In this document: one piece after another, positions 1 through 51,359 of the stretch
How the letters are laid out: each line of letters starts with the position of its first letter
Position numbering within the stretch: position 1 is the stretch's first letter
From: Candidatus Levyibacteriota bacterium
Lineage (GTDB): Bacteria > Patescibacteriota > Microgenomatia > Levybacterales > UBA12049
Length of the DNA: 64,000 bases
Direction of reading: 5' to 3'
Assembly: GCA_016182235.1 (NCBI GenBank)
Contig: JACOXT010000003.1
Coordinates: forward strand, 66,209-130,208
Position numbers and translations under genes: made by a program
Notes under the pieces: generated by a model
What the model was told of the DNA's origin: nothing
The model's database searches: none
Seen by the model: only the letters and a program-made list of their open reading frames with translations

Positions 1-905
1 TAATTATAGCAGATGAGATAGAAGGCGAAGCATTAGCGACTTTAGTTGTAAATAAATTAAGGGGAACATTTAACACAATCGCAATTAAAGCTCCCGGATT
101 TGGAGACAGGCGCAAGGAAATGCTTGAAGATATCGCTATTCTGACCGGCGGAGCTGTTATCTCAGAAGATACAGGGCGTAAGTTTGAAAATGTGACAATT
201 GAGGATTGCGGACGAGCAGATAAGGTGTGGGCGGATAAAGAAAATGCACGAATTATTGGCGGAAAGGGAGAAGCCGGAAAAATAAAAGCAAGAATTGCTC
301 AGACAAGACGCGCAATTGAAGAGACTACATCTGATTTTGATAAAGAGAAATTACAGGAAAGATTGGCAAAACTAGCTGGCGGAGTCGCTGTTATAAATGT
401 TGGAGCTGCGACAGAAGTTGAAATGAAAGACAGGAAAGAAAGAGTTAATGATGCAGTGTCGGCAACAAAGGCAGCTTTGGAAGAAGGTATTGTTCCGGGA
501 GGAGGAGTGTCGCTTCTTCGTGCAAGAAAGGCTCTTCTAAAACTTAAAAATAGTCTGGCGTTGGATGATGAAAAGATTGGCGTAGATATTCTTTATGTCT
601 CACTTGCAGATCCTGCAAGATGGATCGCAAAAAACGCGGGAGCTGATGAAGGATGGGTTGTGAAGCATTTGGAAGATTCAAAAATTGCCGATTATGGTTT
701 TAACGTTATGACAATGGAGTTTGGATCAATGTTGGCCTCCGGAATTGTTGATCCTGCAAAAGTAACCCGTTCTGCAGTACAAAACGCTGCAAGTATTGGA
801 ATGATGGTATTGACAACAGAAGCTCTAATTACCGATCTTCCTGAGAAAAAAGAAGCCGCAATGCCAGGAATGCCTCCAGGGGGCATGGGCGGAATGGATT
901 ACTAA
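1..905 (+). CDS. groL: Chaperonin GroEL, C-terminal part (5' end outside window)
   Basis: The frame of ORF 120..905 stays open back to base 3 ([50 protein letters not shown]...). This is textbook GroEL sequence ending in the Gly/Met tail [14 protein letters not shown]. Confidence 0.97.
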
Positions 906-918
906 TCTTCTCTTCGTC

Positions 919-948
919 ATCCTGAACTCGTTTCAGGATCTTCTTTTT
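919..948 (+). terminator. Hairpin ATCCTGAA-ctcgt-TTCAGGAT plus T-rich tract; probable groEL terminator built from a dispersed repeat
   Basis: Perfect 8-bp stem 919-926/932-939 followed by cttcttttt. The same element recurs at 18756-18776. Confidence 0.6.
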
Positions 949-974
949 GACAAAACAATTTAATATGATATAAT
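947..974 (+). promoter_or_regulatory. Sigma70-like promoter of the proB leader
   Basis: TTGACA 947-952, 16-nt spacer, extended -10 TGaTATAAT 966-974. Confidence 0.65.
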
Positions 975-980
975 CTGTTG

Positions 981-1248
981 TACAGTTTAGTTATAAAGCG
1001 TTTGAGTTTAGTTTCCTGCTAAACAAGCTGATTGCGAAAAGCAATACGGAAGCAAACCGTAAAATATAAGCAAAGCGTGTCGGCAAAGCGGAGCGCTTAC
1101 TAAATAAGAGTTATCTTGTTTAACGTTTGCTCCCCGTCATTGCGGGGATTTTTTATGGCAAGATAGCTAAAGCAAGGTGGTATCACGGGTACAGACCGTC
1201 CTTGCAAGAATCTAACATTTTGTTGGGTTTTTGTAAGGGCGGTTTTTT
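981..1248 (+). promoter_or_regulatory. T-box riboswitch leader (antiterminator/terminator switch), probably tRNA-Pro responsive
   Basis: The T-box sequence AAGGUGGUAUCACGG (1174-1188) is close to the consensus AGGGUGGUACCGCGG. Helix A1 is 1172-1177/1200-1205, the 7-nt bulge UGGUAUC is 1178-1184, and helix A2 is 1185-1188/1196-1199. A competing terminator pairs 1196-1205 with 1233-1242 and is followed by U6 at 1243-1248. A Stem III-like hairpin lies at 1132-1147. Confidence 0.8.
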
Positions 1249-1271
1249 ATCGCCTGAAAGGGGAGTTAATT

Positions 1272-2036
1272 ATGGGAAATCATCAAGAAAGAGAAATAGG
1301 ATTTCATTTAGAGCAAGAAAGGTTTGTTACCAGAAGAATGGTTGTTAAAATAGGAAGCAGCACTATAACTGGCAACACGGAGAATCTTGATGTTAATTTT
1401 ATGGAAAACATCGCCAGACAAGTCAGCTTACTATTTAATCAGGGCATAGAGGTCATGATAGTGACTTCAGGCGCTGTTATAAGTGGAAAGAGAGGTCTAG
1501 GTAGAGTTGATACAGTTCTTGATAAGCAAGTAGCTGCTCTGTATGGACAACCAGAGTTAATTAGCGAGTGGAGAAAAACTTTAAACAATAACGGAGTTAA
1601 AAAGGTGGGACAATTGTTGGTTACGGACATTGATCTTAGGAATGTCAAGACAATTTTAAGCAAATCTTTGCATTTTGGAGTAGTCGTAGTAAATGCAAAC
1701 GATCCTGTTAATAATTACGAGATGAAACAATTCTTAGTTTCTGCAGATAATGATAGATTAGCAGGATTTATTGCAAAGGAAATAGATGCTGATACGTTAC
1801 TTCTCCTAACAGACGTAGATGGAGTTTTAGATAAAAGTGGAAAAGTTATCAATAATTTCTCTACAAAAGAAGAAATAGTAATCTTTTCTGCATCAAGTCT
1901 TGGAACTGGAGGTATGTCTTCAAAAATTCAAGTCGCTCAGGAATTTATCGGAAGAGCAATTATTGCTAATGGAAGATCTGAAAATGTTTTATTAAAAGTT
2001 GCTAGGGGAGAAGAAGTTGGAACACAATTCCATTAA
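1272..2036 (+). CDS. proB: Glutamate 5-kinase (short form, no PUA domain)
   Basis: Amino-acid-kinase motifs VVKIGSSTITG, VTSGAVISGK, NANDPV, ADNDRLAGFIA, LLLLTDVDGV and GTGGMSSKIQVA are present. The SD aaaggggag lies 6 nt before ATG 1272. Confidence 0.85.
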   Translation: MGNHQEREIGFHLEQERFVTRRMVVKIGSSTITGNTENLDVNFMENIARQVSLLFNQGIEVMIVTSGAVISGKRGLGRVDTVLDKQVAALYGQPELISEWRKTLNNNGVKKVGQLLVTDIDLRNVKTILSKSLHFGVVVVNANDPVNNYEMKQFLVSADNDRLAGFIAKEIDADTLLLLTDVDGVLDKSGKVINNFSTKEEIVIFSASSLGTGGMSSKIQVAQEFIGRAIIANGRSENVLLKVARGEEVGTQFH

Positions 2037-2368
2037 AATAATTTAGTTCCTATTTTAGCGTCTCTGTCAGGACGTACCAGAACAACTTTTCCTTCCTCGT
2101 TTGCAACTCCGACTGTTAAGACTTCCGACATAAAGGGACCAATTTGTTTTGGGGGGAAATTTACAACACCCATAACCAAAATTCCTTCTAATTCTTCTTT
2201 GTTATAAAGATCAACAACTTGAACACTTGATTTCTTGATTCCAATTTCTGGACCAAAATCAATAGTCAGTTTATATGCGGGTTTTCTAGCTTCTGGAAAG
2301 TCCTCAACTTCTATAACTTTTCCAACCCTAATATCAACTTTTTCAAAATCACTATAGTTTATTTGCAT
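2033..2368 (-). CDS. Stand-alone tRNA-binding domain protein (CsaA/Trbp111-like)
   Basis: MQINYSDFEKVDIRVGKVIEVEDFPEARKPAYKLTIDFGPEIG... is the OB-fold tRNA-binding domain also found at MetRS C-termini. The MetRS in this window lacks that domain. Confidence 0.85.
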   Translation of the reverse strand: MQINYSDFEKVDIRVGKVIEVEDFPEARKPAYKLTIDFGPEIGIKKSSVQVVDLYNKEELEGILVMGVVNFPPKQIGPFMSEVLTVGVANEEGKVVLVRPDRDAKIGTKLF

Positions 2369-2375
2369 GATTAAA

Positions 2376-2384
2376 ATTATATCA
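2376..2384 (-). promoter_or_regulatory. Extended -10 (TGaTATAAT) 7 nt upstream of the csaA-like ATG; leaderless-type promoter
   Basis: The minus strand reads tgatataat-tttaatc-ATG. The -35 region falls inside the groEL-tail relic. Confidence 0.5.
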
Positions 2385-2446
2385 TGAAAAAAGATGCTGC
2401 AATGCGGGGAATGCCTCCAGGGGGCATGGGCGGAATGGACTACTAA
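2384..2446 (+). pseudogene. Displaced relic of a groEL 3' end ([20 protein letters not shown])
   Basis: By hand alignment, 63 nt align with groEL 843-905 at 56/63 identity, in the same orientation and frame, with its own TAA. Confidence 0.85.
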
Positions 2447-2451
2447 AAAGG

Positions 2452-3354
2452 TTAATTAGATGGGGCTTTCATCCTCTTTACTCTATAGCGTCTGTAGAGA
2501 ATATAGATTAGAATAACTGCCGCAATCAATGGAGAATAGACTGCGAGCCAGATGAGGGCTTCAGCTCCAATCCTTAAATTGTCCAAAAGACTTCTTACTG
2601 CATATTTAAAGACAACACCTGGACGGAATGCCTTATCTGGAGTGTAAGGAAGCGCGAGTTCATCGGTTGAAAGGTAAATTGTGATCTTTGACAACTGCGC
2701 GTTTTTCTCGATTGCCTGCTGTTGTCCCCTGAGCGCGTCAATCTGGTCTTGCAAATTAATAAGCTCTCTTTGAACAGTTAAAATATCTTGAACATTAACT
2801 GCTTTATCTAAAATATCCTCAAACTTCACCTGCGTTTTTCTCAAAGTTGCTAATCTTGCTTCTATATCAGTATATTCTTGTGTTACATCGGTACCAACTA
2901 AGTTTTCACTAGTTACTTTAACTGCCAAATTTCTAAAGTAAGAAAGTGTTTGATCTAACTTATCAGTAGGCACGCGTACGGTAATGCTTGCAAAAGGAGA
3001 CTCAGTCGGTCTTGTATAGGATGTGTAAACCATATATCCGCCGTTATCTTTTACATAGGAAAGAATTTGATCACCGGTTTGGCGTACATCCTGAACAAGA
3101 AGAGATATGTTAGATTCTTGTATTACTACTCGATTGCTGGAAACATCAAAACTCTCGATAGACTTTGATTGGGAAAATTCTGGAGCGACTCCACCAATTC
3201 CAGCTTGCGGTAGAGCTTGGGGGTAATCTATATTTTGAAGTGTTCTATATTGAGAAAAAGGAGTGATGCCATTGTTTTTGAGATAAAGATAAATTATTAC
3301 AACAAGAAGAGTGATTATTAACTTGTGTGTTTTAACCCAACTAATTAGCGCCAT
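2452..3354 (-). CDS. DUF4349-like membrane-anchored protein
   Basis: It has an N-terminal TM segment, a coiled-coil region (EARLATLRKTQVKFEDILDK...LINLQDQIDALRGQQQAIEKNAQ) and a C-terminal TM segment, which is typical DUF4349 layout. ATG 3354 is preferred over the ORF-track start 3408 because a promoter sits between them. Confidence 0.75.
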   Translation of the reverse strand: MALISWVKTHKLIITLLVVIIYLYLKNNGITPFSQYRTLQNIDYPQALPQAGIGGVAPEFSQSKSIESFDVSSNRVVIQESNISLLVQDVRQTGDQILSYVKDNGGYMVYTSYTRPTESPFASITVRVPTDKLDQTLSYFRNLAVKVTSENLVGTDVTQEYTDIEARLATLRKTQVKFEDILDKAVNVQDILTVQRELINLQDQIDALRGQQQAIEKNAQLSKITIYLSTDELALPYTPDKAFRPGVVFKYAVRSLLDNLRIGAEALIWLAVYSPLIAAVILIYILYRRYRVKRMKAPSN

Positions 3355-3361
3355 TAATCTT

Positions 3362-3390
3362 AATATAATACTGTAGTTTGTAATTTGCAA
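3362..3390 (-). promoter_or_regulatory. Promoter TTGCAA-17-TATATT, 7 nt upstream of ATG 3354
   Basis: The minus strand reads ttgcaa attacaaactacagtat tatatt aagatta ATG. Confidence 0.55.
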
Positions 3391-3428
3391 TAGCCTATAA
3401 AAGAGCATCTGTTATAATATTTTGATTG

Positions 3429-4268
3429 ATGAAAAAGGTTATGCTGCTTACTATTCCACTAGTTGTGGCGGTAATTGTTTTTTTTGCCGTCTTATTTTAT
3501 ATAAACGAAAATTCTGCAAAAGGAGCGCTAAATGTCACTTCTGAGCCCAAAAGTGAGGTCTATTTAAATAGTAAATTGGTTGGTGATACTCCGCTTTGTT
3601 TATGCGAGCCTCCTCAAATGCTTGCCATTGGAGAGTATTCTGTCAAACTTATTCCCAAAGATACAGGTTTTAAACCTTTTGAAGAGAAAATTACAATCAA
3701 TAAATCTACTCTTACATCTGTGGAGAGAATTTTTTCCAAAGAAGAGGATAGGTCTGAAGGAACCGTAGTAACCTTGTCGAGTCTACCTAACAAAAGAGAT
3801 ATTGAGATTTTGGCGGAATCAGTACCCTTAGGAGCGAATGTTTTTTTGAACAATAGTCCAATTGGCAAAACGCCACTGCTTTTGAAAAAAGTAAGCGAAG
3901 GAGACCACGATCTTAGAATTATTCAGGAAGGATTTAAAGACAAATTAATAAAAATTAATACAGCATTAGGCTATAGACTTACTTCAAGGGTTTTTTTAGG
4001 AATCAGTGATTTGGCTAATAATCTTGCAACTCCATCAGGAGAAGTTGCTTCTTCTTCGGCAAAAGTTACTCCAACAATTTTAATACTTGATACGCCTACA
4101 GGATTTTTGAGAGTTAGGGAAAGTACCTCTACAGCCTCCTTAGAGATTGGTAGGGTTCTTCCCGGAGAAACCTATGAACTTTCGGATGAGAAAAGCGGTT
4201 GGTTTGAGATACAATTTGATGATGAAAAAAAAGGTTGGATAAGCAGTCAATATGCAGAGAAGCAGTAA
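3429..4268 (+). CDS. Membrane-anchored protein with two PEGA-like domains and a C-terminal bacterial SH3-like domain
   Basis: It has an N-terminal TM segment, PEGA-like segments (SEPKSEVYLNSKLVGDTPL; VPLGANVFLNNSPIGKTPLLL) and the C-terminal segment FLRVRES...GWFEIQFDDEKKGWISSQY. An extended -10 TGtTATAAT at 3410-3418 lies 10 nt before ATG 3429. Confidence 0.7.
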   Translation: MKKVMLLTIPLVVAVIVFFAVLFYINENSAKGALNVTSEPKSEVYLNSKLVGDTPLCLCEPPQMLAIGEYSVKLIPKDTGFKPFEEKITINKSTLTSVERIFSKEEDRSEGTVVTLSSLPNKRDIEILAESVPLGANVFLNNSPIGKTPLLLKKVSEGDHDLRIIQEGFKDKLIKINTALGYRLTSRVFLGISDLANNLATPSGEVASSSAKVTPTILILDTPTGFLRVRESTSTASLEIGRVLPGETYELSDEKSGWFEIQFDDEKKGWISSQYAEKQ

Positions 4269-18700: not shown

Positions 18701-18845
18701 GTTCGTGCAAACCTAAGGCTCGACCTCAAGGGTTGACGCTCGAAGACTTGTCGTCATCCTGAATTTATTTCAGGATCTTATACCTGAATAGTTAGATGTC
18801 GAAACCCGCTTCGCTGCGAGGCGAGCAAGTTCGGCATGACACGGA
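18701..18845. repeat. Cluster of three GC-rich palindromic repeat modules
   Basis: It includes tcgtcatcctgaatttatttcaggatc (18751-18777, the same family as 915-940) and atgtcgaa...ttcggcat (18796-18838). Confidence 0.7.
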
Positions 18846-19538
18846 TTACGGACTAGTAAATTGAAAGGTGGAGAGGATTTGGTCGAATGTTTGTAAATAT
18901 TGGGCATCTTTATTACCGCCATGATTTGCTTTAATTTGTATAACTTGTTGATTATTAAGTAAGAAAACTTCGATAAAATCACTTCCAAGCTCACTACCTG
19001 TAATTCTTTTTCCTTGAATCCCATTAAGATTAAAAGACTCATTTTTCTCGATCCGTACAGAACTTCCTGGATCTTCAGCAATAAGAGCAAGTTGACCTTG
19101 ACTCTTTATAAAATCTTCAAAAGATGTTGAACTTGTTTTAATAAGTCCTCTAATGGTAATAAAAAGTCCGTCATGAAGCTCTTGTCCTTGACGCTGCGTT
19201 TCACCCTTAATAGCTAAGCTAACCTCATCATCCCTTTCACTTAGATTCATTTCTAAAGGATATCTTAGGCTAAAGTTATATTGTTTATTTTCATAAGTTA
19301 TCCAATCTGTAGTTTCATCAGGAGTTGGGGAAGGGATTGTGGTTGGTACTACTGAACTTTGTTTGTTTGAGACTACTGTTTGATTTTGTTTTGTTCCCAG
19401 AATATAAGAACCTATGGTGACTAGAACAAATAGTATCCCAAGACCAATAGGGATAATTTTTGAACTGGGAGTATTATTTGAAGGCATTTGATTGTTATTA
19501 ACTTCTGGAGTCTGCGATACTTGATTTATATTGTCCAT
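18846..19538 (-). CDS. Membrane-anchored/secreted protein of the QILSTF(K/Q/R)F-tail family, unknown function
   Basis: It has a TM anchor, the linker GTKQNQTVVSNKQSSVVPT and a domain starting DWITYENKQYNFSLRYP and ending FDQILSTFQFTSP. Confidence 0.7.
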   Translation of the reverse strand: MDNINQVSQTPEVNNNQMPSNNTPSSKIIPIGLGILFVLVTIGSYILGTKQNQTVVSNKQSSVVPTTIPSPTPDETTDWITYENKQYNFSLRYPLEMNLSERDDEVSLAIKGETQRQGQELHDGLFITIRGLIKTSSTSFEDFIKSQGQLALIAEDPGSSVRIEKNESFNLNGIQGKRITGSELGSDFIEVFLLNNQQVIQIKANHGGNKDAQYLQTFDQILSTFQFTSP

Positions 19539-22792: not shown

Positions 22793-23473
22793 ATGGATAG
22801 TCAAACTCAAGGACAGCAATCTGCCAATACCGATATTTCTTCCCAGTCGACCAATTCTAACCAGTGGTTAAGAACATTGGGCATTGGGTTTGGAATAGTA
22901 TCTTTTGGAATCGCCATTGGAGTTATTGGATATCTATTAGGAACAAAACAAAATCAAACTGTAGTCCAAAACCAACAAAGCTCAGTAGTTCCAACTCTAT
23001 CTCAACCTTCCCCAACTGCTATTGACGAAACCGCAAACTGGAAGACATATACCGACGACAAATATAGTTTCCAATTTAAATATCCATCTGAATGGGTAAT
23101 TGCTTCAAAATTGGATAACGCTCTGGAAGGTGTTGCTAGATACATTGCATTAACAGATCCTTTGTTATCTGAGTCTGCTTCGCTAGTTTTTTCTATTCAG
23201 ATAAAACCAAATTCATCTTATTCTAATGAGCTTACGAAAACAAAAGCAGATATAGGAGCGAGTGAAGAGCATAACATTGTTATATCTGGTATTGACGGTA
23301 AGAAATACTCTACGGTTGGAGAAGCAACAGGTCCTGGTCCAGATAAACTTTCATCATATGTCTTGCCATTGAATGGAGGTTCTTTTCTAATCACTATTGC
23401 TCCAGAGCAGGAAAACAAAAATTATACCGCTACAATAGACCAAATCCTCTCTACCTTCAAATTTGTTGATTAA
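22793..23473 (+). CDS. QILSTF-tail family paralog
   Basis: TM anchor, GTKQNQTVVQNQQSSVVPT, ANWKTYTDDKYSFQFKYPSEW, ending IDQILSTFKFVD. Confidence 0.7.
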   Translation: MDSQTQGQQSANTDISSQSTNSNQWLRTLGIGFGIVSFGIAIGVIGYLLGTKQNQTVVQNQQSSVVPTLSQPSPTAIDETANWKTYTDDKYSFQFKYPSEWVIASKLDNALEGVARYIALTDPLLSESASLVFSIQIKPNSSYSNELTKTKADIGASEEHNIVISGIDGKKYSTVGEATGPGPDKLSSYVLPLNGGSFLITIAPEQENKNYTATIDQILSTFKFVD

Positions 23474-23482
23474 TTAAAAGTA

Positions 23483-23719
23483 CTATTTTTTATAGACCTC
23501 ATCATGGGTGCCGATGTCAGTAAAAATCTCAGAATTTCTTTTAAACTCTAATTTTTGATAATATTCCGATTTCCACTTAGCGGATGCGCCACGACACCAA
23601 GATTGCGCAAATAGACGCTTTTTTAACTTGTTTGGTTTAATAACATCTTTTGTTTTACGGTATGCCATATAAAGATTATACATGAACGGCGATAACAGAT
23701 TCAGATTCAAATTCATCAC
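23483..23719 (-). CDS. Small ORF; the C-terminus (DIGTHDEVYKK) resembles RelE/ParE-type toxin ends, possibly a fragment
   Basis: The evidence is the ORF plus a weak C-terminal motif resemblance. No partner antitoxin is present. Confidence 0.3.
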   Translation of the reverse strand: MMNLNLNLLSPFMYNLYMAYRKTKDVIKPNKLKKRLFAQSWCRGASAKWKSEYYQKLEFKRNSEIFTDIGTHDEVYKK

Positions 23720-23727
23720 TCCTTGAT

Positions 23728-23810
23728 GTCATTGCGAGCGAAGCGAAGCAAGCTCTTGCTATTTGGGATTGCTTCGTCTCCTTCGGCAAGCTCAGGATCC
23801 TCGCAATGAC
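23728..23810. repeat. Long GC-rich palindromic repeat (gtcattgcgag ... ctcgcaatgac)
   Basis: It has 11-bp terminal inverted arms and an inner hairpin gaagcaa/ttgcttc. Confidence 0.75.
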
Positions 23811-23821
23811 ATTTATTCGTG

Positions 23822-23850
23822 TTGAATAGGAAGGCTGAACCTGGTATACT
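23822..23850 (+). promoter_or_regulatory. nusA promoter TTGAAT-17-TATACT, 10 nt before ATG 23861
   Basis: It lies inside the ORF-track N-terminal extension, which starts at 23819. Confidence 0.6.
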
Positions 23851-23860
23851 TAGAAACACT

Positions 23861-25018
23861 ATGCCGGCAGTTCAAAGAAGCGAATTTTTGTTAGCTCTAA
23901 ATCAAGTCGCCAACGAGCGCGGCGTTGATGTTGAAGTGGTTTTAGATACAGTTAAAAATGCAATCCTAGCCGCCTACAAAAAGGATCACCCTGATATAGA
24001 AATTGAGGAATTCACTACGACTTTGGATAAAAATACCGGAGAAGCTAAAATTTCACACAACAGTAAAGACGTTACTCCTCCTGGTTTTGGAAGGATTGCC
24101 GCTCAGACCGCAAGACAAGTAATACTTCAAAAAATTAGAGAAAAAGAAAAAGAAGCAATAATTGCCGATTATAAGCTGAGGATTGGTACTATTGTAAACG
24201 GCATGATCTTACGATTTGCCGGACCAAATATTATTGTTGATGTCGGGAAAACAGAAGCATTGATGCCGTCTCAAGAGCAGATTCCAAACGAAAAATATCA
24301 TTTGAATCAAAGGCTAGCCGTGTATATTCTAGAAATTAGAGAGGGACTGAAAGGAGAGGATATAATAGTATCAAGGTCTAGTAATGGGCTTTTGGAAGGA
24401 TTATTTAAAAGGGAGGTTCCGGAGGTTAGTAAAGGAAATGTCGTTATCAAAAATATCGCAAGGGAGCCTGGCGCAAGAAGTAAAGTAGCTGTATATTCAA
24501 ATCAATCAGGAATTGATCCTGTTGGAAGCTGTGTCGGACAAAGAGGAGTAAGAGTTCAGGCTATAATAGCCGAGTTTGGAGGACTTGAAAAAATAGACAT
24601 TATTCAATGGCATGAAAATATTAAAGATTATATTGCCCAATCCCTGTCTCCCGCTAAGAATGTAAGAGTTGAGATTGAAAAAGAGGAAGACTCGAAGAGC
24701 CCGGGGCAAGAAAAGACTGCTCATGTATTTGTTCCAAGTACGGAATTATCGCTTGCAATTGGCAGAGAAGGACAAAACGTTCGTCTAGCTTCTAGATTAA
24801 CAGGTTATAGAATTGAGATAGAAGAAGAGATAAAAGAGGAAAAACCTTTAGCTACCGAAGAACAGTCCCGCGAAGCGGGATCTGGCTCCGCCAGAAAAAC
24901 AGAGGAAGCACAGAGGGTTAAGGATGCAGGTAAAGTTAGCGATAAAGCGATTACAGAAAAAGAAGAAGTAAGCTCTAAAGTTGAAGCTAAACCAGTTGAG
25001 AAAAAAAAGAAGAAATAA
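23861..25018 (+). CDS. nusA: Transcription termination/antitermination factor NusA
   Basis: MPAVQRSEFLLALNQVANERGVD... has S1 and KH regions and an acidic/lysine-rich tail. Confidence 0.93.
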   Translation: MPAVQRSEFLLALNQVANERGVDVEVVLDTVKNAILAAYKKDHPDIEIEEFTTTLDKNTGEAKISHNSKDVTPPGFGRIAAQTARQVILQKIREKEKEAIIADYKLRIGTIVNGMILRFAGPNIIVDVGKTEALMPSQEQIPNEKYHLNQRLAVYILEIREGLKGEDIIVSRSSNGLLEGLFKREVPEVSKGNVVIKNIAREPGARSKVAVYSNQSGIDPVGSCVGQRGVRVQAIIAEFGGLEKIDIIQWHENIKDYIAQSLSPAKNVRVEIEKEEDSKSPGQEKTAHVFVPSTELSLAIGREGQNVRLASRLTGYRIEIEEEIKEEKPLATEEQSREAGSGSARKTEEAQRVKDAGKVSDKAITEKEEVSSKVEAKPVEKKKKK

Positions 25019-25127
25019 TTTGAAATTTTCAATTTGAAATTTGAAATCAAATATAAATTTTAAAATTTAAAACCATTTAAAATTCATTGAAAATTAAAAA
25101 TTTTAAATTTAAAATTAATCGTATGTT

Positions 25128-26624
25128 ATGGCAAATAAAAAAGTTCATAAGCAATCCTCAAAAGAATCTGTAAATTATCCGCCTGTAGTCGCTGTTTTGG
25201 GTCACGTAGATCATGGAAAAACAACCCTTCTTGATGCTATTCGTAAAACCGATGTTGTGACAAGAGAGCATGGGGGCATAACACAAGGGATCGGAGCATC
25301 AAGTATCGAGATCGCCGTTGAAGGAAAAAAAAGAAAAATTACTTTTATTGACACGCCTGGACACGAAGCTTTCTCGCTTATGCGAGGACGCGGAACGCAG
25401 GCGGGAGATTTAGGTCTTTTAGTGGTTTCATCTATTGATGGAGTAATGCCTCAGACAAGAGATAGTATAAAGCTTCTTAAAGAGGGAAAGATACCTTTTA
25501 TTGTTGTTTTGACCAAGATTGACCTTCCTGAAAAAAATGAGGATAAAGTTAAACGGCAATTATTAAAAGAAGAAGTATTGCTTGAGGGATATGGAGGAGA
25601 CGTTCCATATATTGCTGTTTCTGCAAAAGAAAATATAAACATTAAGGAGCTTCTTGAATTGATTCTTCTAGTCTTCGATATGGGCGGGACAAAAGATCTT
25701 TCGGAAAAAGGACAATTTAAAGCTATTGTTATTGAATCAAGATTGGATCAAAAAGCAGGCCCTAGGGCAACGATTGTTATCAAAAACGGAAGTTTGTCCA
25801 TAAGAGATGAAATAATTTGCAACTCATTGATTGCGCGCGTAAGGACAATTATAAATGATAAGGGACAGCACTTAAATACAGCAAAACTTGGGGAAGCGGT
25901 CGAAGTTTTAGGATTTGAAAAAGTACCTCCAATTGGAGAGATTGTGACCAAAAAAGGCGCTGAGGTCGCCCACGATCCCGCTAAGCAAGATGTAGGCTCC
26001 CCGCGCCCTCTTGAAATTCCTCCAGATTTTTTAGCTCCAAAAGAAGAACCTAAGCTTTCAGTAATTCTTTGTGCGGATAATTTGGGGTCTTTGGAGGCAA
26101 TTTCCAAAGCAATACCCCAAGAAATAAGTATTGTTCTTCAAAAAACAGGAGACATCTCATCGGCTGATATTTTGTTAGCAAAAACGATGAATGCAATTGT
26201 ATTGGGATTTAATATAAAGATTAAGCCAGAGATTTTAAAATTTGCGAGCCAAGAGAAAGTTCTGGTAAAAAATTATAGGATTATTTATGAATTAATAGAT
26301 GAAATAAAGGACGTTTTGAAAGGCAAGGAATTGGCTCTAGAAGAGGAGATCTATGGTAAGGCAAAGATTATAGCTTCCTTCCCATTTGAGAAAACGAAGG
26401 TTTTGGGAATCAAAGTCTTGGAAGGAAGAGTGGCTCGCGGAGACAAAGTAAGACTTATAAGCCGATCAAGAGATAAGGATGTAATTATTGGGGAAGCAGT
26501 TGTTAGCTCTTTAAGAGTTGGAAAAAACTCAGTTTCCAAGGTCGAAGAAGGACATGAAGGAGGCATACTTCTCTCCCCTTTCCTTGACTTTACTATAGGA
26601 GATATGTTAATATGCCATAGCTAA
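25128..26624 (+). CDS. infB: Translation initiation factor IF-2 (short form starting at the G domain)
   Basis: PPVVAVLGHVDHGKTTLLD, DTPGHEAF, TKIDL, 498 aa. Confidence 0.95.
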   Translation: MANKKVHKQSSKESVNYPPVVAVLGHVDHGKTTLLDAIRKTDVVTREHGGITQGIGASSIEIAVEGKKRKITFIDTPGHEAFSLMRGRGTQAGDLGLLVVSSIDGVMPQTRDSIKLLKEGKIPFIVVLTKIDLPEKNEDKVKRQLLKEEVLLEGYGGDVPYIAVSAKENINIKELLELILLVFDMGGTKDLSEKGQFKAIVIESRLDQKAGPRATIVIKNGSLSIRDEIICNSLIARVRTIINDKGQHLNTAKLGEAVEVLGFEKVPPIGEIVTKKGAEVAHDPAKQDVGSPRPLEIPPDFLAPKEEPKLSVILCADNLGSLEAISKAIPQEISIVLQKTGDISSADILLAKTMNAIVLGFNIKIKPEILKFASQEKVLVKNYRIIYELIDEIKDVLKGKELALEEEIYGKAKIIASFPFEKTKVLGIKVLEGRVARGDKVRLISRSRDKDVIIGEAVVSSLRVGKNSVSKVEEGHEGGILLSPFLDFTIGDMLICHS

Positions 26625-27622: not shown

Positions 27623-27628
27623 ATAAAT

Positions 27629-27740
27629 AATTAATTTTCAATTCGAAATTTTCAATTTTCAATGAAGCTTCAAATTTAAATTTTAAAAAATTAAGTTTTC
27701 ATTTCAAATCTTAAATTGAAAATTTTAAATTATTTAAGGT
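27629..27740 (+). promoter_or_regulatory. Long rpsO 5' leader (candidate S15 autoregulatory element)
   Basis: About 110 nt lie between the predicted TSS and ATG 27741, with ttttcaat/attgaaaa-type inverted repeats. Most neighbouring genes have almost no leader. Confidence 0.3.
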
Positions 27741-40303: not shown

Positions 40304-40921
40304 ATGAGTCTTCCACAATCACTAACAACTCCGACACGTTTTTCAAAATACCTTGCGATTCTTGTTTTTGTTACACTTCCTTTTATTGGTTTTTTGCTTG
40401 GTGTTCGCTATCAGGAAGTATTCATGCAATCAGAAAAAATGCAAGAAGAAAGCAACCTTCTAATCGAACGTACCCCCACCCCTACACCTTTAGCAATACC
40501 AACAGTTGACCCTTCAGTAACAGCAAATTGGAAGACATATTCGGGTAAATATTTTTCTTTTAAATATCCATCTACGTGGATAGAGCAAGCAGGACCTAAG
40601 GATGGAGAGGAGGATATAGGATTTAGAATATCACCTAATGCAGTATTTGGAGCATCTTATTATATAAATGAGAGTTATGAGCAAGGAATAAGGGATTTTG
40701 AGGATCGCAAATCAAGTAAGCTAAAAATTGATGCAAGAGAAGCTACAAGATTTGAATTAACAGATGCCCCAAGCGTACTACCATCTGGCTATTCAATAAT
40801 TTCGTTTGTTGTTAAAGGACTTGGAAATACAAGCTACTCAATAGGCTTCAATGGTGACAGAAAAGATATTGAAGATCAATTAATAACCCAAATCCTCTCC
40901 ACCTTTCAATTCTCAAACTGA
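40304..40921 (+). CDS. QILSTF-tail family paralog
   Basis: TM anchor, TANWKTYSGKYFSFKYPSTW, ending ITQILSTFQFSN. Confidence 0.7.
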   Translation: MSLPQSLTTPTRFSKYLAILVFVTLPFIGFLLGVRYQEVFMQSEKMQEESNLLIERTPTPTPLAIPTVDPSVTANWKTYSGKYFSFKYPSTWIEQAGPKDGEEDIGFRISPNAVFGASYYINESYEQGIRDFEDRKSSKLKIDAREATRFELTDAPSVLPSGYSIISFVVKGLGNTSYSIGFNGDRKDIEDQLITQILSTFQFSN

Positions 40922-49900: not shown

Positions 49901-49964
49901 TTGGTAATATAATTTCTAAGCGGGCAATTTAAGTGCCTGCAGTGGCCGGGGCAGAAGTTGCGGC
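49888..49964 (-). pseudogene. Displaced relic of an nth 3' end (SRNFCPGHCRHLNCPLRNYITKILK*)
   Basis: By hand alignment, 49905-49964 aligns with nth 50747-50806 at 46/60 nt. The frame is kept, and CPGHCRHLNCPLRNYI matches CPAHCKHSNCPLRNYI. Confidence 0.8.
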
Positions 49965-50738: not shown

Positions 50739-51359
50739 TTATCTTTTAATATAATTTCTCAGTGGGCAATTGGAGTGTTTACAGTGAGCTGGACAATAGG
50801 TGCGGCCGTAAGCGATCATTCTATTTGTAAAATCAAACCACTCCTCACGCGGTAAAATTTTCATCAAGTCTTGTTCGATTTTCTCTGGATTTTTGTTATT
50901 TGTAAGTCCAAACAAGCGAGAAAGCCGTGTAGCATGAGTATCAACTGCAATACCTTCAGTTATTCCATATAAATTTCCCAAAATAATATTTGCTGTTTTT
51001 CTGCCCACTCCCGGCAGTTTGGTTAGCTCGTTCATTGTTCTTGGAATTTGACCCTTGTATTTTTCATCAATTATTCTCGCAGTTTCTTTTATAAATTTTG
51101 CTTTTTGCCGAAATAGTCCAAGTTGACTTAAATCTTTTTCAAGTTCGCTTAAATTTATGTTTTTATAGTTCTTAATTTCTTTATATTTCTCAAAAAGTTT
51201 TTCAGTTACCTCGTTTACTTTTTTGTCCGTATTTCTAGCTGATAAAATGACTGTAGTTAAAAGCTCAAAAGGAGTTGTGTAATTAAGAATTGTTTTAGAG
51301 TTAGGAAACAATTCTTTTAAAATCTTCAAAATTTCTTCTATTTCTTGTTTTTGACTCAT
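50739..51359 (-). CDS. nth: Endonuclease III
   Basis: HhH-GPD (LTKLPGVGRKTANIILG), VDTHATRLS and a C-terminal Cys cluster CPAHCKHSNC. ATG 51359 is preferred because TGtTATAAT lies 7 nt upstream of it. Confidence 0.9.
   Translation of the reverse strand: MSQKQEIEEILKILKELFPNSKTILNYTTPFELLTTVILSARNTDKKVNEVTEKLFEKYKEIKNYKNINLSELEKDLSQLGLFRQKAKFIKETARIIDEKYKGQIPRTMNELTKLPGVGRKTANIILGNLYGITEGIAVDTHATRLSRLFGLTNNKNPEKIEQDLMKILPREEWFDFTNRMIAYGRTYCPAHCKHSNCPLRNYIKR

Follow-up and report, generated by a model that had tools for sequence, protein, structure and literature searches.

Two copies of the groEL 3' end

How does a second copy of the groEL 3' end come to lie downstream of an intact groEL, with proB and csaA between them? 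The question is raised by the 64-kb stretch of Levybacteria DNA analyzed here (the window). Its first gene is groEL (3-905, plus strand; Pfam Cpn60_TCP1, E 1e-31), of which the C-terminal 300 codons are included, the start lying upstream of the window. The first-pass annotation had reported a duplicated groEL tail, and our ungapped comparison gave the same count: 56 identities over 63 nt between 843-905 and 2384-2446, both terminated by TAA. The direct repeat proper is formed by the functional tail (845-905, plus strand) and an orphaned 3' fragment, hereafter the relic (2386-2446, plus strand). These 61 nt are identical at 56 positions (92%) up to the stop codon and include an exact core of 32 nt (867-898 and 2408-2439), while the sequences flanking both copies are unrelated on either side. 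The core 32-mer occurs exactly twice in the window, versus zero times expected from 100 shuffles, and no other two-copy direct repeat of the 64 kb is as long or as good. A one-by-one search of 78 further groEL loci, in genomes both related and unrelated, found none in which the groEL tail is present a second time (self-copy score of 49 here versus 17 for the best of this background).

A chimera of assembly or binning, joining the contigs of two strains at their common groEL tail, has to be considered. The region is able to confuse assemblers: in the relative L082 (relatives and contigs are given by L numbers) two versions of the groEL tail flank a scaffold gap of 10 N, an arrangement uninterpretable as a tail duplication. 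Against this, the window has no gap here, and the two copies differ at 7 positions, which rules out a collapsed or mis-joined repeat. Besides, the region recurs in two independent Logan assemblies, made from different runs, with 100% identity across their spans. Contig L177 (SRR12113430) covers 869-2437 and ends inside opposite repeat copies, and contig L081 (SRR12113384) covers 1880-2982, running from csaA through the whole relic into the DUF4349 gene. The duplication thus survives in other assemblies and the probability of an artefact is practically negligible.

Contents of the interval between the copies

Just after the functional tail, the terminator scan found a hairpin (GTCATCCTGAA-N5-TTCAGGATC and then a T-run; 916-940, plus strand) with a fold of -10.1 kcal/mol (z = -2.3). 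It had been described as a copy of a dispersed repeat. Membership in a dispersed palindrome family could be verified, with a second copy at 18753-18777; a recent replacement of the terminator could not, as orthologous hairpins with compensatory stem changes are found directly 3' of groEL in L009, L092/93 and L094-96. Judged by this conservation, the hairpin is the native groEL terminator of Levybacteria.

A sigma-70-type promoter (947-974, plus strand; TTGACA, a 16-nt spacer and TG-n-TATAAT, 12 of 12 consensus matches), conserved in L094 and L089, precedes a T-box-like leader recognized by Rfam and the terminator scan (992-1262, plus strand). The leader is very highly conserved with L094 and L089 (84% mean column identity in a three-way alignment, gapped ends included) and a consensus fold was obtained. 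The T-box proposed earlier at this place holds only in an atypical sense. The match to Rfam RF00230 scores 30.4 bits (E 4e-5; 32.5 bits for the L089 leader), below the gathering score of 93, and Stem I is truncated to about 20 nt versus 86 in the model, with no recognizable K-turn or distal platform in the leader. What stands is that AAGGUGGUAUCACGG aligns to the T-box sequence of the Rfam model, UGGN bulge included, and that the terminator (1196-1242) and the antiterminator share sequence at the 3' arm of the latter, the two helices being mutually exclusive. A short hairpin of 6-7 bp carries CCU in its loop (UUUCCUG), and one of its pairs is compensatory in L089. Rfam had no match in the GC-rich spacer of L086, and no paper on T-box riboswitches in CPR was found in the literature searched.

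The leader is followed by a proB-like amino-acid kinase gene (1272-2036, plus strand; 254 aa, Pfam AA_kinase) without PUA domain, whose product scores 144 bits against TIGR01027 glutamate 5-kinase, below the cut-off of 186. Its orthologues adjoin csaA in L089 and L094-96, and groEL in L094-96 and L087. Convergent to it lies csaA, coding for a CsaA/Trbp111-type tRNA-binding protein of 111 aa (2033-2368, minus strand; Pfam tRNA_bind). This product is above the curated cut-offs of NF007495 (158 bits, cut-off 117) and TIGR02222 (153 bits, cut-off 119.65), and 85-91% identical to Levybacteria orthologues. At the nucleotide level csaA is 84.5% identical to L092 versus 78.7% to the otherwise closer L086, only a weak hint of discordance. 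No paralogues of proB, csaA or the DUF4349 gene were found in the 64-kb window.

An extended -10 box (TGATATAAT, 2376-2384, minus strand), read from the sequence, stands 7 nt before the csaA ATG, and TGCTATAAT is found at 6 nt in L086, L092, L094 and L178. The conservation of TGnTATAAT at 6-7 nt from the start codon bears out the promoter proposed earlier and is compatible with a leaderless mRNA. Upstream of csaA these four relatives conserve a back-to-back csaA/PEGA promoter, ATTATAGCATGATATAAT; L178, with 45 nt upstream of csaA, confirms this promoter and carries no information on DUF4349.

Two gene orders in the relatives

The relic abuts a gene that converges on it. Its TAA (2444-2446) is 5 nt from the stop codon (2452-2454) of the DUF4349 gene (2452-3354, minus strand; 300 aa by the database start, with the longest ORF extending to 3408; Pfam DUF4349, E 2e-39), the protein of which is identical to P0001. 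Beyond it, the PEGA/SH3 protein gene (3429-4268, plus strand; Pfam) is the conserved right flank of a variable interval. Actually, the synteny of groEL with PEGA, UbiA and MraY is kept across Microgenomates, and at least eight gene orders were found between groEL and PEGA. A metagenome scan with the single DUF4349 protein returned nothing; repeated with a DUF4349 alignment, it gave 80 loci, mostly in unrelated contexts.

Two of these gene orders together account for the locus. In L094-96, csaA stands directly beside PEGA, with a single groEL tail and with neither DUF4349 nor relic. A single blastn alignment of 1714 nt (77%) relates 702-2395 of the window to 8644-6975 of L094, extending from the groEL end and its hairpin over promoter, leader and proB into csaA. 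The earlier view of the 1.5-kb block as a free-standing insert in the groEL tail had to be given up, the block being colinear with these single-tailed relatives over 1.7 kb. In L084, L097 and L100, on the other hand, an intact groEL converges on DUF4349, which is the ancestral order that the first-pass annotation had predicted for this locus. Again a single alignment (74%) connects 2387-3419 with 5995-4939 of L097, including the groEL tail, DUF4349 and the spacer between DUF4349 and PEGA. In L082 DUF4349 adjoins PEGA, but other genes separate groEL from DUF4349. Two more arrangements are of interest: on a JGI contig groEL, csaA, DUF4349 and PEGA follow one another without the relic, and in L089 a ceramidase-family gene precedes the DNA with leader, proB and csaA, which begins there with the -35 box.

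The ends of these homologies define a joint at 2385/2386, with the csaA half of the csaA/PEGA promoter on its left and groEL codon -20 on its right. L086, L092 and L094 are homologous as far as 2386-2395, and L097, L084 and L082 from 2386-2387 onwards. The joint falls between the two -10 boxes of the back-to-back promoter. The overlap at the junction consists of GA (2 nt) when L086, L092 and L178 are taken as proxies of the parent, and of an A-run when L094 is taken.

The two tails also differ in their endings. The functional copy ends in GATTACTAA-T (GAT TAC TAA T) followed by the hairpin, which is also the arrangement of L094 and L009. For the relic the ending is GACTACTAA-AAAGGTTAA (GAC TAC TAA AAAG-TTAA), as in L082, L084 and L097, and its last 30 nt are identical to the groEL of L097. 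The window tails diverge by 8%, and either copy differs from the L097 tail by 10-11%, as expected for alleles of two lineages. Beyond the adjacency to DUF4349, what marks the relic as coming from the order with DUF4349 amounts to a single synonymous site plus some 9 nt of a flank rich in A/T.

Could the block (906-2385) be, or have been, a site-specific integrative element, with the groEL 3' end as attachment site and the tails as attL and attR? It is a discrete block between direct repeats and leaves its target gene intact, as islands at gene 3' ends do; L084 and L097 look like the empty site, and contig L177 begins and ends within the repeats, which would be expected also of a circle. Nevertheless, L081 links csaA, relic and DUF4349 linearly, and the tail repeats are found at none of the other 78 groEL loci searched. 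No recombinase could be found in the block, where the only genes are those of AA_kinase and tRNA_bind, with no other ORF of useful size; leader, proB and csaA fill it and leave no room for an integrase, excisionase or transposase. Terminal inverted repeats are absent from its ends, the sole end-proximal inverted match being the two TGATATAAT promoter boxes. The same block beside a single-tailed groEL in L094-96 and beside the ceramidase-family gene in L089 speaks for ordinary chromosomal DNA, and we regard an attachment-site element as highly implausible. A transposon or IS was rejected as well: there is no transposase, and the duplication is of 61 nt versus the 2-14 bp expected.

The relic as a non-coding leftover

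A relic kept for a function could act as the -35 or UP region of csaA, as the DUF4349 terminator, or through a translated peptide of 20 aa. Relative to the csaA promoter it lies between about -20 and -80; it has an in-frame ATG at its 5' edge and persists in a streamlined genome, all of which such a role would explain. Its co-option as the csaA -35 region, claimed earlier, did not hold: the candidates match TTGACA at 3 of 6 positions with a spacing of 15-16 nt, and the relatives with the same extended -10 have unrelated DNA upstream of it. The antisense strand of the relic folds worse than shuffles (-6.1 versus -10.0 kcal/mol), arguing against a DUF4349 terminator. As for the peptide, the ATG goes back to a CATG in what was once the -10 region of PEGA, and no RBS, Shine-Dalgarno sequence or promoter was visible on inspection upstream of the relic. 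Besides its disabling junction, the relic has a specific change of CCG to CGG that replaces Pro by Arg, at a position that is Pro in every intact groEL examined, and the relic was found in no relative. The 20-codon ORF at 2384-2446 is accidental, and the description of the relic as a non-coding leftover of the groEL 3' end was supported. We infer that the relic is inert by itself, any function being very unlikely.

A probable scar between two gene orders

The orphan tail is probably a recombination scar that joins two gene orders of related Levybacteria. As such it is an ordinary scar and reveals no new element or mechanism. One parental architecture, which we call N, would consist of groEL, hairpin terminator, promoter, T-box-like leader, proB, convergent csaA, the back-to-back csaA/PEGA promoters and PEGA; the other, D, would be groEL, convergent DUF4349 and PEGA. 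The window would then be N up to 2385 (groEL to the csaA promoter) fused to D from 2386 (groEL codon -20). Each architecture would have brought its own groEL tail, hence the two tails in the window. The partners may have been the DNA of two closely related cells or chromosomes differing in the groEL-PEGA cassette. At one end the exchange would have been homologous, within a conserved flank, and at the other an illegitimate join, with a microhomology of about 2 nt (GA), or up to the A-run if the parent was similar to L094. Such an exchange would correspond to homology-facilitated illegitimate recombination (HFIR), the single crossover of a circularized fragment being an equivalent form. On these comparisons, homologous-plus-illegitimate recombination appears to be the most likely mechanism.

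With regard to polarity, we lean towards a D-type recipient (like L082, L097 or L084, which are the nearest relatives) that took up groEL-anchored N-type DNA. In this case proB and csaA would have been added and the resident groEL end pushed downstream, a "C-terminal displacement". The opposite direction, in which an N-type recipient took up D-type DNA anchored in PEGA/UbiA and ending 61 nt inside groEL, is also a serious candidate. Among the sequenced genomes there is no actual donor or recipient, the parental junctions being proxies from relatives at 75-90% identity. D-type relatives have spacers of 35-53 nt, or still longer ones, between groEL and DUF4349, in some cases with a terminator; here the spacer is 5 nt, so that an extra deletion is needed.

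The groEL product is 93% identical in amino acids to those of L082 and L084, 91% to that of L097 and 82-84% to that of L094. Sliding identity showed the groEL body to be L082-like along the whole 900 nt, to its very end and without a switch, and no donor tract or crossover point was visible in the gene. L082 was the nearest relative for every shared gene when nearest neighbors were determined gene by gene. Neither did composition indicate a foreign segment, as the GC content stays between 33 and 43% throughout with no step.

This lack of a compositional or phylogenetic donor tract would suit an origin in situ. According to it, an ancestor with the order groEL-proB-csaA-DUF4349-PEGA copied 61 nt of its own groEL tail into the spacer between csaA and DUF4349. 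Either 845-2385 would have been duplicated in tandem and the second proB-csaA then lost, or a break would have been repaired with the tail as template. The copies have the exact 32-nt core in common, no relative is closer to either of them than they are to each other, and the JGI contig demonstrates that csaA beside DUF4349 exists independently of the relic. However, two events would be needed, or an unusual templated insertion that stops exactly at the stop codon. Besides, duplication in place leaves unexplained why the relic has the D-type signature (GAC...TAAAAAG-TTAA) and not the resident GAT...TAATC, why the joint lies in the csaA/PEGA promoter, and why L097 and L084, both among the nearest relatives, have groEL facing DUF4349. 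We consider this origin improbable. The exact core taken on its own is explained equally well by a duplication in situ or by later gene conversion.

Some consequences of the relic are passive. It is now the upstream flank of the csaA promoter, and the two direct repeats make proB-csaA deletable. Its value would be that of a marker, since it fixes the joint of two gene orders to the base and would show that this joint was illegitimate and not site-specific. It would also mean that close CPR relatives shuffle housekeeping modules among themselves at one conserved chromosomal site, namely DUF4349, csaA, and proB with its riboswitch-like leader. This is modest but concrete evidence of how the streamlined genomes of the Candidate Phyla Radiation may exchange and lose biosynthetic genes.

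The number of gene orders, at least eight, suggests a hot spot in the groEL-PEGA interval. A wider reading, that this is a cassette-exchange hot spot of Levybacteria in which the conserved flanks, including the last groEL codons, anchor the recombination of DNA taken up from nearby cells, the orphan tail being a footprint of HFIR, is speculative and we think it rather unlikely. Were it true, the orphan tail would be a rare, directly readable trace of genes taken up naturally by an uncultivated CPR bacterium, the tail pair at the scaffold gap of L082 could be a second, independent footprint, and the 61-nt repeats could still mediate the loss of proB-csaA within the population.

Comparison with known systems

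The T-box control of proline biosynthesis is known from proBA and proI of Bacillus subtilis, with a CCU specifier, and T-boxes with a short Stem I are found in Actinobacteria. The leader described here resembles them in preceding proB, in carrying AAGGUGGUAUCACGG, in its competing antiterminator and terminator helices and in the CCU of a hairpin loop. It differs from them in its score (30 bits versus 93), a Stem I of about 20 nt and the CPR host, and it concerns the cargo, not the duplication.

Islands and prophages that integrate into the 3' end of a gene are bounded by attL and attR repeats; in one example, mycobacteriophage Bxb1, attB lies in groEL1. As in such islands, direct repeats of a gene 3' end flank additional genes while the target ORF stays intact, and an empty site is found in relatives (L084 and L097). 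Unlike them, the block carries no integrase or other mobility gene and gives no sign of moving as a whole unit, its cargo is native and syntenic with groEL in other Levybacteria, and the repeats are imperfect throughout.

Another parallel is the C-terminal displacement of Rhs, CDI and T6SS effector loci, which leaves orphaned 3' ends together with orphan immunity genes (PMC5361080; Jackson et al., 2009, as cited therein). There, incoming DNA pairs with the conserved part of a gene and brings a new 3' end with its downstream genes, and the old end is orphaned downstream, as would have happened here. However, the gene affected here is a housekeeping chaperonin, the tails are nearly identical and nothing polymorphic or toxic would have been exchanged; the displaced fragment is single, with no array and no sign of selection.

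The last comparison is with HFIR, scars of which were left by natural transformation (de Vries & Wackernagel, 2002; Prudhomme et al., 2002; both as cited in PMC5361080). At loci with T6SS and Rhs, displaced 3' ends are left by integration that uses homology at one end only, the other end being joined illegitimately (PMC5361080). In an Escherichia coli conjugation study (PMC3240628), a part of the anchor segment was duplicated in most events, by the single crossover of a circularized fragment, and the duplications of homologous DNA measured 109-950 bp. The segment duplicated here, of 61 nt, is shorter than these experimental 109-950 bp, and the case is derived from comparative sequence alone in an uncultivated CPR bacterium. 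The likeness lies in the structure. One junction would lie in conserved homologous DNA while the other would be illegitimate with almost no homology, foreign genes would join the anchor, and the crossover of a circularized fragment would yield two groEL tails. As both HFIR and C-terminal displacement would have it, the two parental architectures are found in relatives and are each colinear with one half of the locus, and an orphan 3' fragment of the anchor gene lies beyond the added genes.

A second groEL 3' end between csaA and DUF4349

The C-terminal part of groEL extends up to position 905 and is followed by a hairpin terminator (916-940), a perfect sigma-70-type promoter (947-974), a T-box-like leader with its own terminator (1196-1242), a proB-like amino-acid kinase gene (1272-2036) and a convergent csaA/tRNA-binding protein gene (2033-2368). 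Between csaA and the DUF4349 gene (2452-3354), after which come the PEGA/SH3, UbiA and MraY genes in that order, we have found an orphaned copy of the groEL tail (the relic, 2386-2446, + strand). The first-pass annotation had described this duplication and the sequence agrees. The ungapped alignment of 843-905 with 2384-2446 gives 56 identities over 63 nt, and both translations terminate at TAA. The homology proper starts at 845/2386 and covers 61 nt (92%) ending at the stop codon, including an exact run of 32 nt (867-898 and 2408-2439) found exactly twice in the 64 kb and in none of 100 shuffles. The sequences flanking the copies are unrelated at either side, and only 5 nt separate the relic stop from that of the convergent DUF4349 gene. 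An assembly artefact is very unlikely, because contigs from two independent Logan assemblies of separate sequencing runs match the window perfectly. Specifically, L177 (SRR12113430) corresponds to 869-2437, from the interior of one repeat copy to the interior of the other, and L081 (SRR12113384) to 1880-2982, passing through csaA and the complete relic to end within DUF4349; the duplication and the relic junction thus survive in other assemblies.

Two gene orders fused at the groEL tail

Positions 702-2395 align in a single stretch (77%, 1714 nt) with the compared locus L094, spanning the groEL end, hairpin, promoter, leader, proB, csaA and the csaA promoter. Positions 2387-3419 align, again in a single stretch (74%), with locus L097, spanning the end of its intact groEL, DUF4349 and the spacer to PEGA. 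The only sequence common to both architectures is the groEL tail. By these alignments, the window joins the left portion of one architecture to the right portion of the other.

The endings of the two tails show the same division. The functional tail ends GAT TAC TAA T, followed by the hairpin GTCATCCTGAA-N5-TTCAGGATC, the same as in L094 and in locus L009; in locus L092 the hairpin is present but groEL ends GAC TAT TAG. The relic ends GAC TAC TAA AAAGGTTAA, like the groEL 3' flank of L097 and of the relatives L082 (GCA_964363495.1) and L084 (GCA_964372855.1), and over its final 30 nt it matches L097 groEL without a difference. The window copies diverge by 8%, and each by 10-11% from the L097 tail. 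Besides, one relic codon reads CGG (Arg), whereas all the intact groEL genes examined read CCN (Pro) there, a change that fits a copy no longer under selection. In L082 (9408-9526, minus strand) a 10-N scaffold gap separates two versions of the groEL tail; behind the second come the usual flank and a TTCCCCGAGAGGGGAA terminator. Either strains differ at this position or the tail was duplicated a second time, independently; the overlapping contig L098 ends before this region.

From its occurrence in L094, L009 and L092, with compensatory stem changes (ATCCCGAA/TTCGGGAT in L094, ATGCTGAA/TTCAGCAT in L092), we conclude that the hairpin at 916-940 is the native groEL terminator of Levybacteria. 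The terminator now in use had been described as a copy of a dispersed repeat; the same palindrome does appear at 18753-18777 and in other CPR loci, but given its orthologous presence in those three loci the hairpin is not a recent substitute. The palindrome family is dispersed over several CPR genomes, one Levybacteria copy being the conserved groEL terminator. Further copies were located in L009 (6910-6934), L010 (10896-10920), L060 (4804-4828), L092 (10157-10181), L094 (8408-8432) and L127 (4321-4345); most differences between copies fall in the loop or are compensatory changes of the stem.

At the other side of the block, the relatives L086, L092, L094 and L178 carry upstream of csaA a compact divergent promoter, ATTATAGCATGATATAAT, whose two strands read as extended -10 boxes, overlapping and back to back, one serving csaA and the other PEGA (window 2366-2386; L086 1755-1804; L094 6949-7003; L178 1-48; also in L092). 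In the window this promoter is severed after ...ATTATATCATG(A) and groEL sequence, AAAAAAGATGCTGC, follows. The overlap at the joint is GA with L086, L092 or L178 as the parent look-alike, and an A-run with L094. The 20-codon "ORF" owes its in-frame ATG to the CATG of the former PEGA promoter. The distance from the csaA -10 box to the ATG is 6-7 nt in five lineages, and this conservation supports the leaderless csaA mRNA proposed in the first-pass annotation. Transcription of csaA is predicted to begin at the A of its ATG (2368) or 1 nt ahead of it. In L086 a GC-rich, structured-looking spacer of ~210 nt (2137-2349, e.g. gcagagcaccacgactttagccgtgggtgaatgcgatgctctgc) lies between csaA and DUF4349; it had no Rfam match at E <= 0.01.

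Variability of the groEL-PEGA interval

The groEL ... PEGA-UbiA-MraY frame is conserved across Microgenomates and its groEL-PEGA interior is variable. Comparing window 906-3425 with the corresponding loci, we found at least eight gene orders. PEGA follows groEL directly in L008, L009 and L021. The order groEL, proB, convergent csaA, PEGA appears in L094-96, and groEL, four other genes, convergent csaA, PEGA in L092. The arrangement of groEL facing DUF4349, presumed ancestral by the first reading, exists before PEGA in L084, L097 and L100. L082 has groEL, other genes, a PIN toxin-antitoxin pair, DUF4349 and PEGA; L087 has groEL, proB, convergent DUF4349 and PEGA; L086 has DUF4349, csaA and PEGA; and a JGI contig (3300075153), by its gene calls only, has groEL, csaA, DUF4349 and PEGA. 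The interval is a hot spot filled by proB, csaA, DUF4349, the PIN pair, GNAT/HIT/DHFR genes or nothing. Of the DUF4349 homologues with less than 65% identity, most are sited elsewhere in their genomes.

GroEL identity (window 3-905 against L094, L092, L087, L021 and L100) is out of step with the neighbor genes. GroEL of L094 is 82-84% identical and those of L092, L087 and L021 62-68%, and L094 is no closer than these three in UbiA, MraY or glycosyltransferase. Because GroEL identity does not track these genes, the comparison suggests that groEL itself may have been exchanged between Levybacteria lineages.

The proB leader and other repeats

The proB leader (window 975-1262; L094 8090-8375, minus strand; L089 856-1142) is very highly conserved across lineages whose ProB proteins are just 57-77% identical. 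It has the T-box sequence and a terminator/antiterminator pair, with Stem I reduced to a 6-7-bp hairpin whose loop is UUUCCUG (Pro codon CCU). It scores 30 bits against the Rfam T-box (gathering score 93), and Rfam over 1-64000 gave no family at gathering score and no tRNA, riboswitch or other RNA gene. Possibly the leader represents an atypical T-box with a short Stem I, here in a CPR phylum; no paper on T-boxes in CPR turned up in the literature searched.

Other repeats appear along the window. Two inverted paralogous ORFs of ~228 aa, 18846-19538 (-) and 22793-23473 (+), with 65-nt arms 85% complementary (19342-19406 and 22931-22995), enclose a 3.2-kb segment of three genes. A 24-33-nt motif, AATTGAAAGGTGGAGAGGATTTGG, is found three times near gene ends (18859-18882, 23432-23464, 40888-40911). 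The intergenic inverted repeat at 23706-23832, GTCATTGCGAG...CTCGCAATGAC, contains internal GC-rich repeats and has the look of a further dispersed palindromic element. At 25013-25135 and 27626-27735, AT-rich repeats, both inverted and direct (AATTTGAAATTTTCAATTT...), surround a 2.6-kb segment, and a 60-nt direct repeat (77%), starting TAATATAATTTCT, is located at 49905-49964 and 50747-50806, 842 nt apart.

Origin of the relic

We found no evidence of relic activity of any kind, no terminator on its antisense strand and no visible SD or promoter upstream of its short ORF. Its proposed co-option as the csaA -35 region is not borne out: the candidates are poor (3/6), and in relatives the same extended -10 box has unrelated sequence upstream. 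As a passive consequence, proB-csaA could be lost by deletion between the 61-nt direct repeats, restoring the order groEL, DUF4349, PEGA (D-type).

Membership of the block in an att-flanked island, with the tails as attL and attR, or in a transposon is excluded, because it contains no recombinase, transposase or terminal inverted repeats and in other Levybacteria forms part of the ordinary chromosome. Duplication of the groEL tail in situ is improbable; it needs more events and leaves the flank signature and the joint position unexplained. The preferred reading is that two related chromosomes, or fragments of DNA, differing in the cassette recombined, where one end would have been homologous, within a conserved flank, and the other illegitimate.

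The direction is less clear-cut. Across all the shared genes, groEL through TatD, L082 is the nearest relative, with L084 second for most and L097, assessed separately, similarly close. Since in all three DUF4349 adjoins PEGA and the site contains neither proB nor csaA, parsimony slightly favors a D-type recipient that would have gained groEL-anchored proB-csaA and had its resident groEL end displaced, essentially the scenario of the first-pass annotation. Somewhat less probable is a recipient of the L094 order (N-type) that would have gained the tail and DUF4349 through a PEGA/UbiA anchor; it is plausible because the groEL-hairpin-leader-proB-csaA order is common to the more distant L094 lineage and no donor tract was seen in groEL. 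The original observation is confirmed and its interpretation supported in part.

The atypical leader and the hot-spot behavior of the interval are more unusual, but incidental to the relic, which is a fresh case of a recombination scar of a known kind. The steps proposed would fit the pattern of homology-facilitated illegitimate recombination, which has also been used to explain orphaned 3' ends at T6SS and Rhs loci (PMC5361080). In E. coli, where integration took the related single-crossover route, 109-950 bp of the anchor segment became duplicated (PMC3240628).
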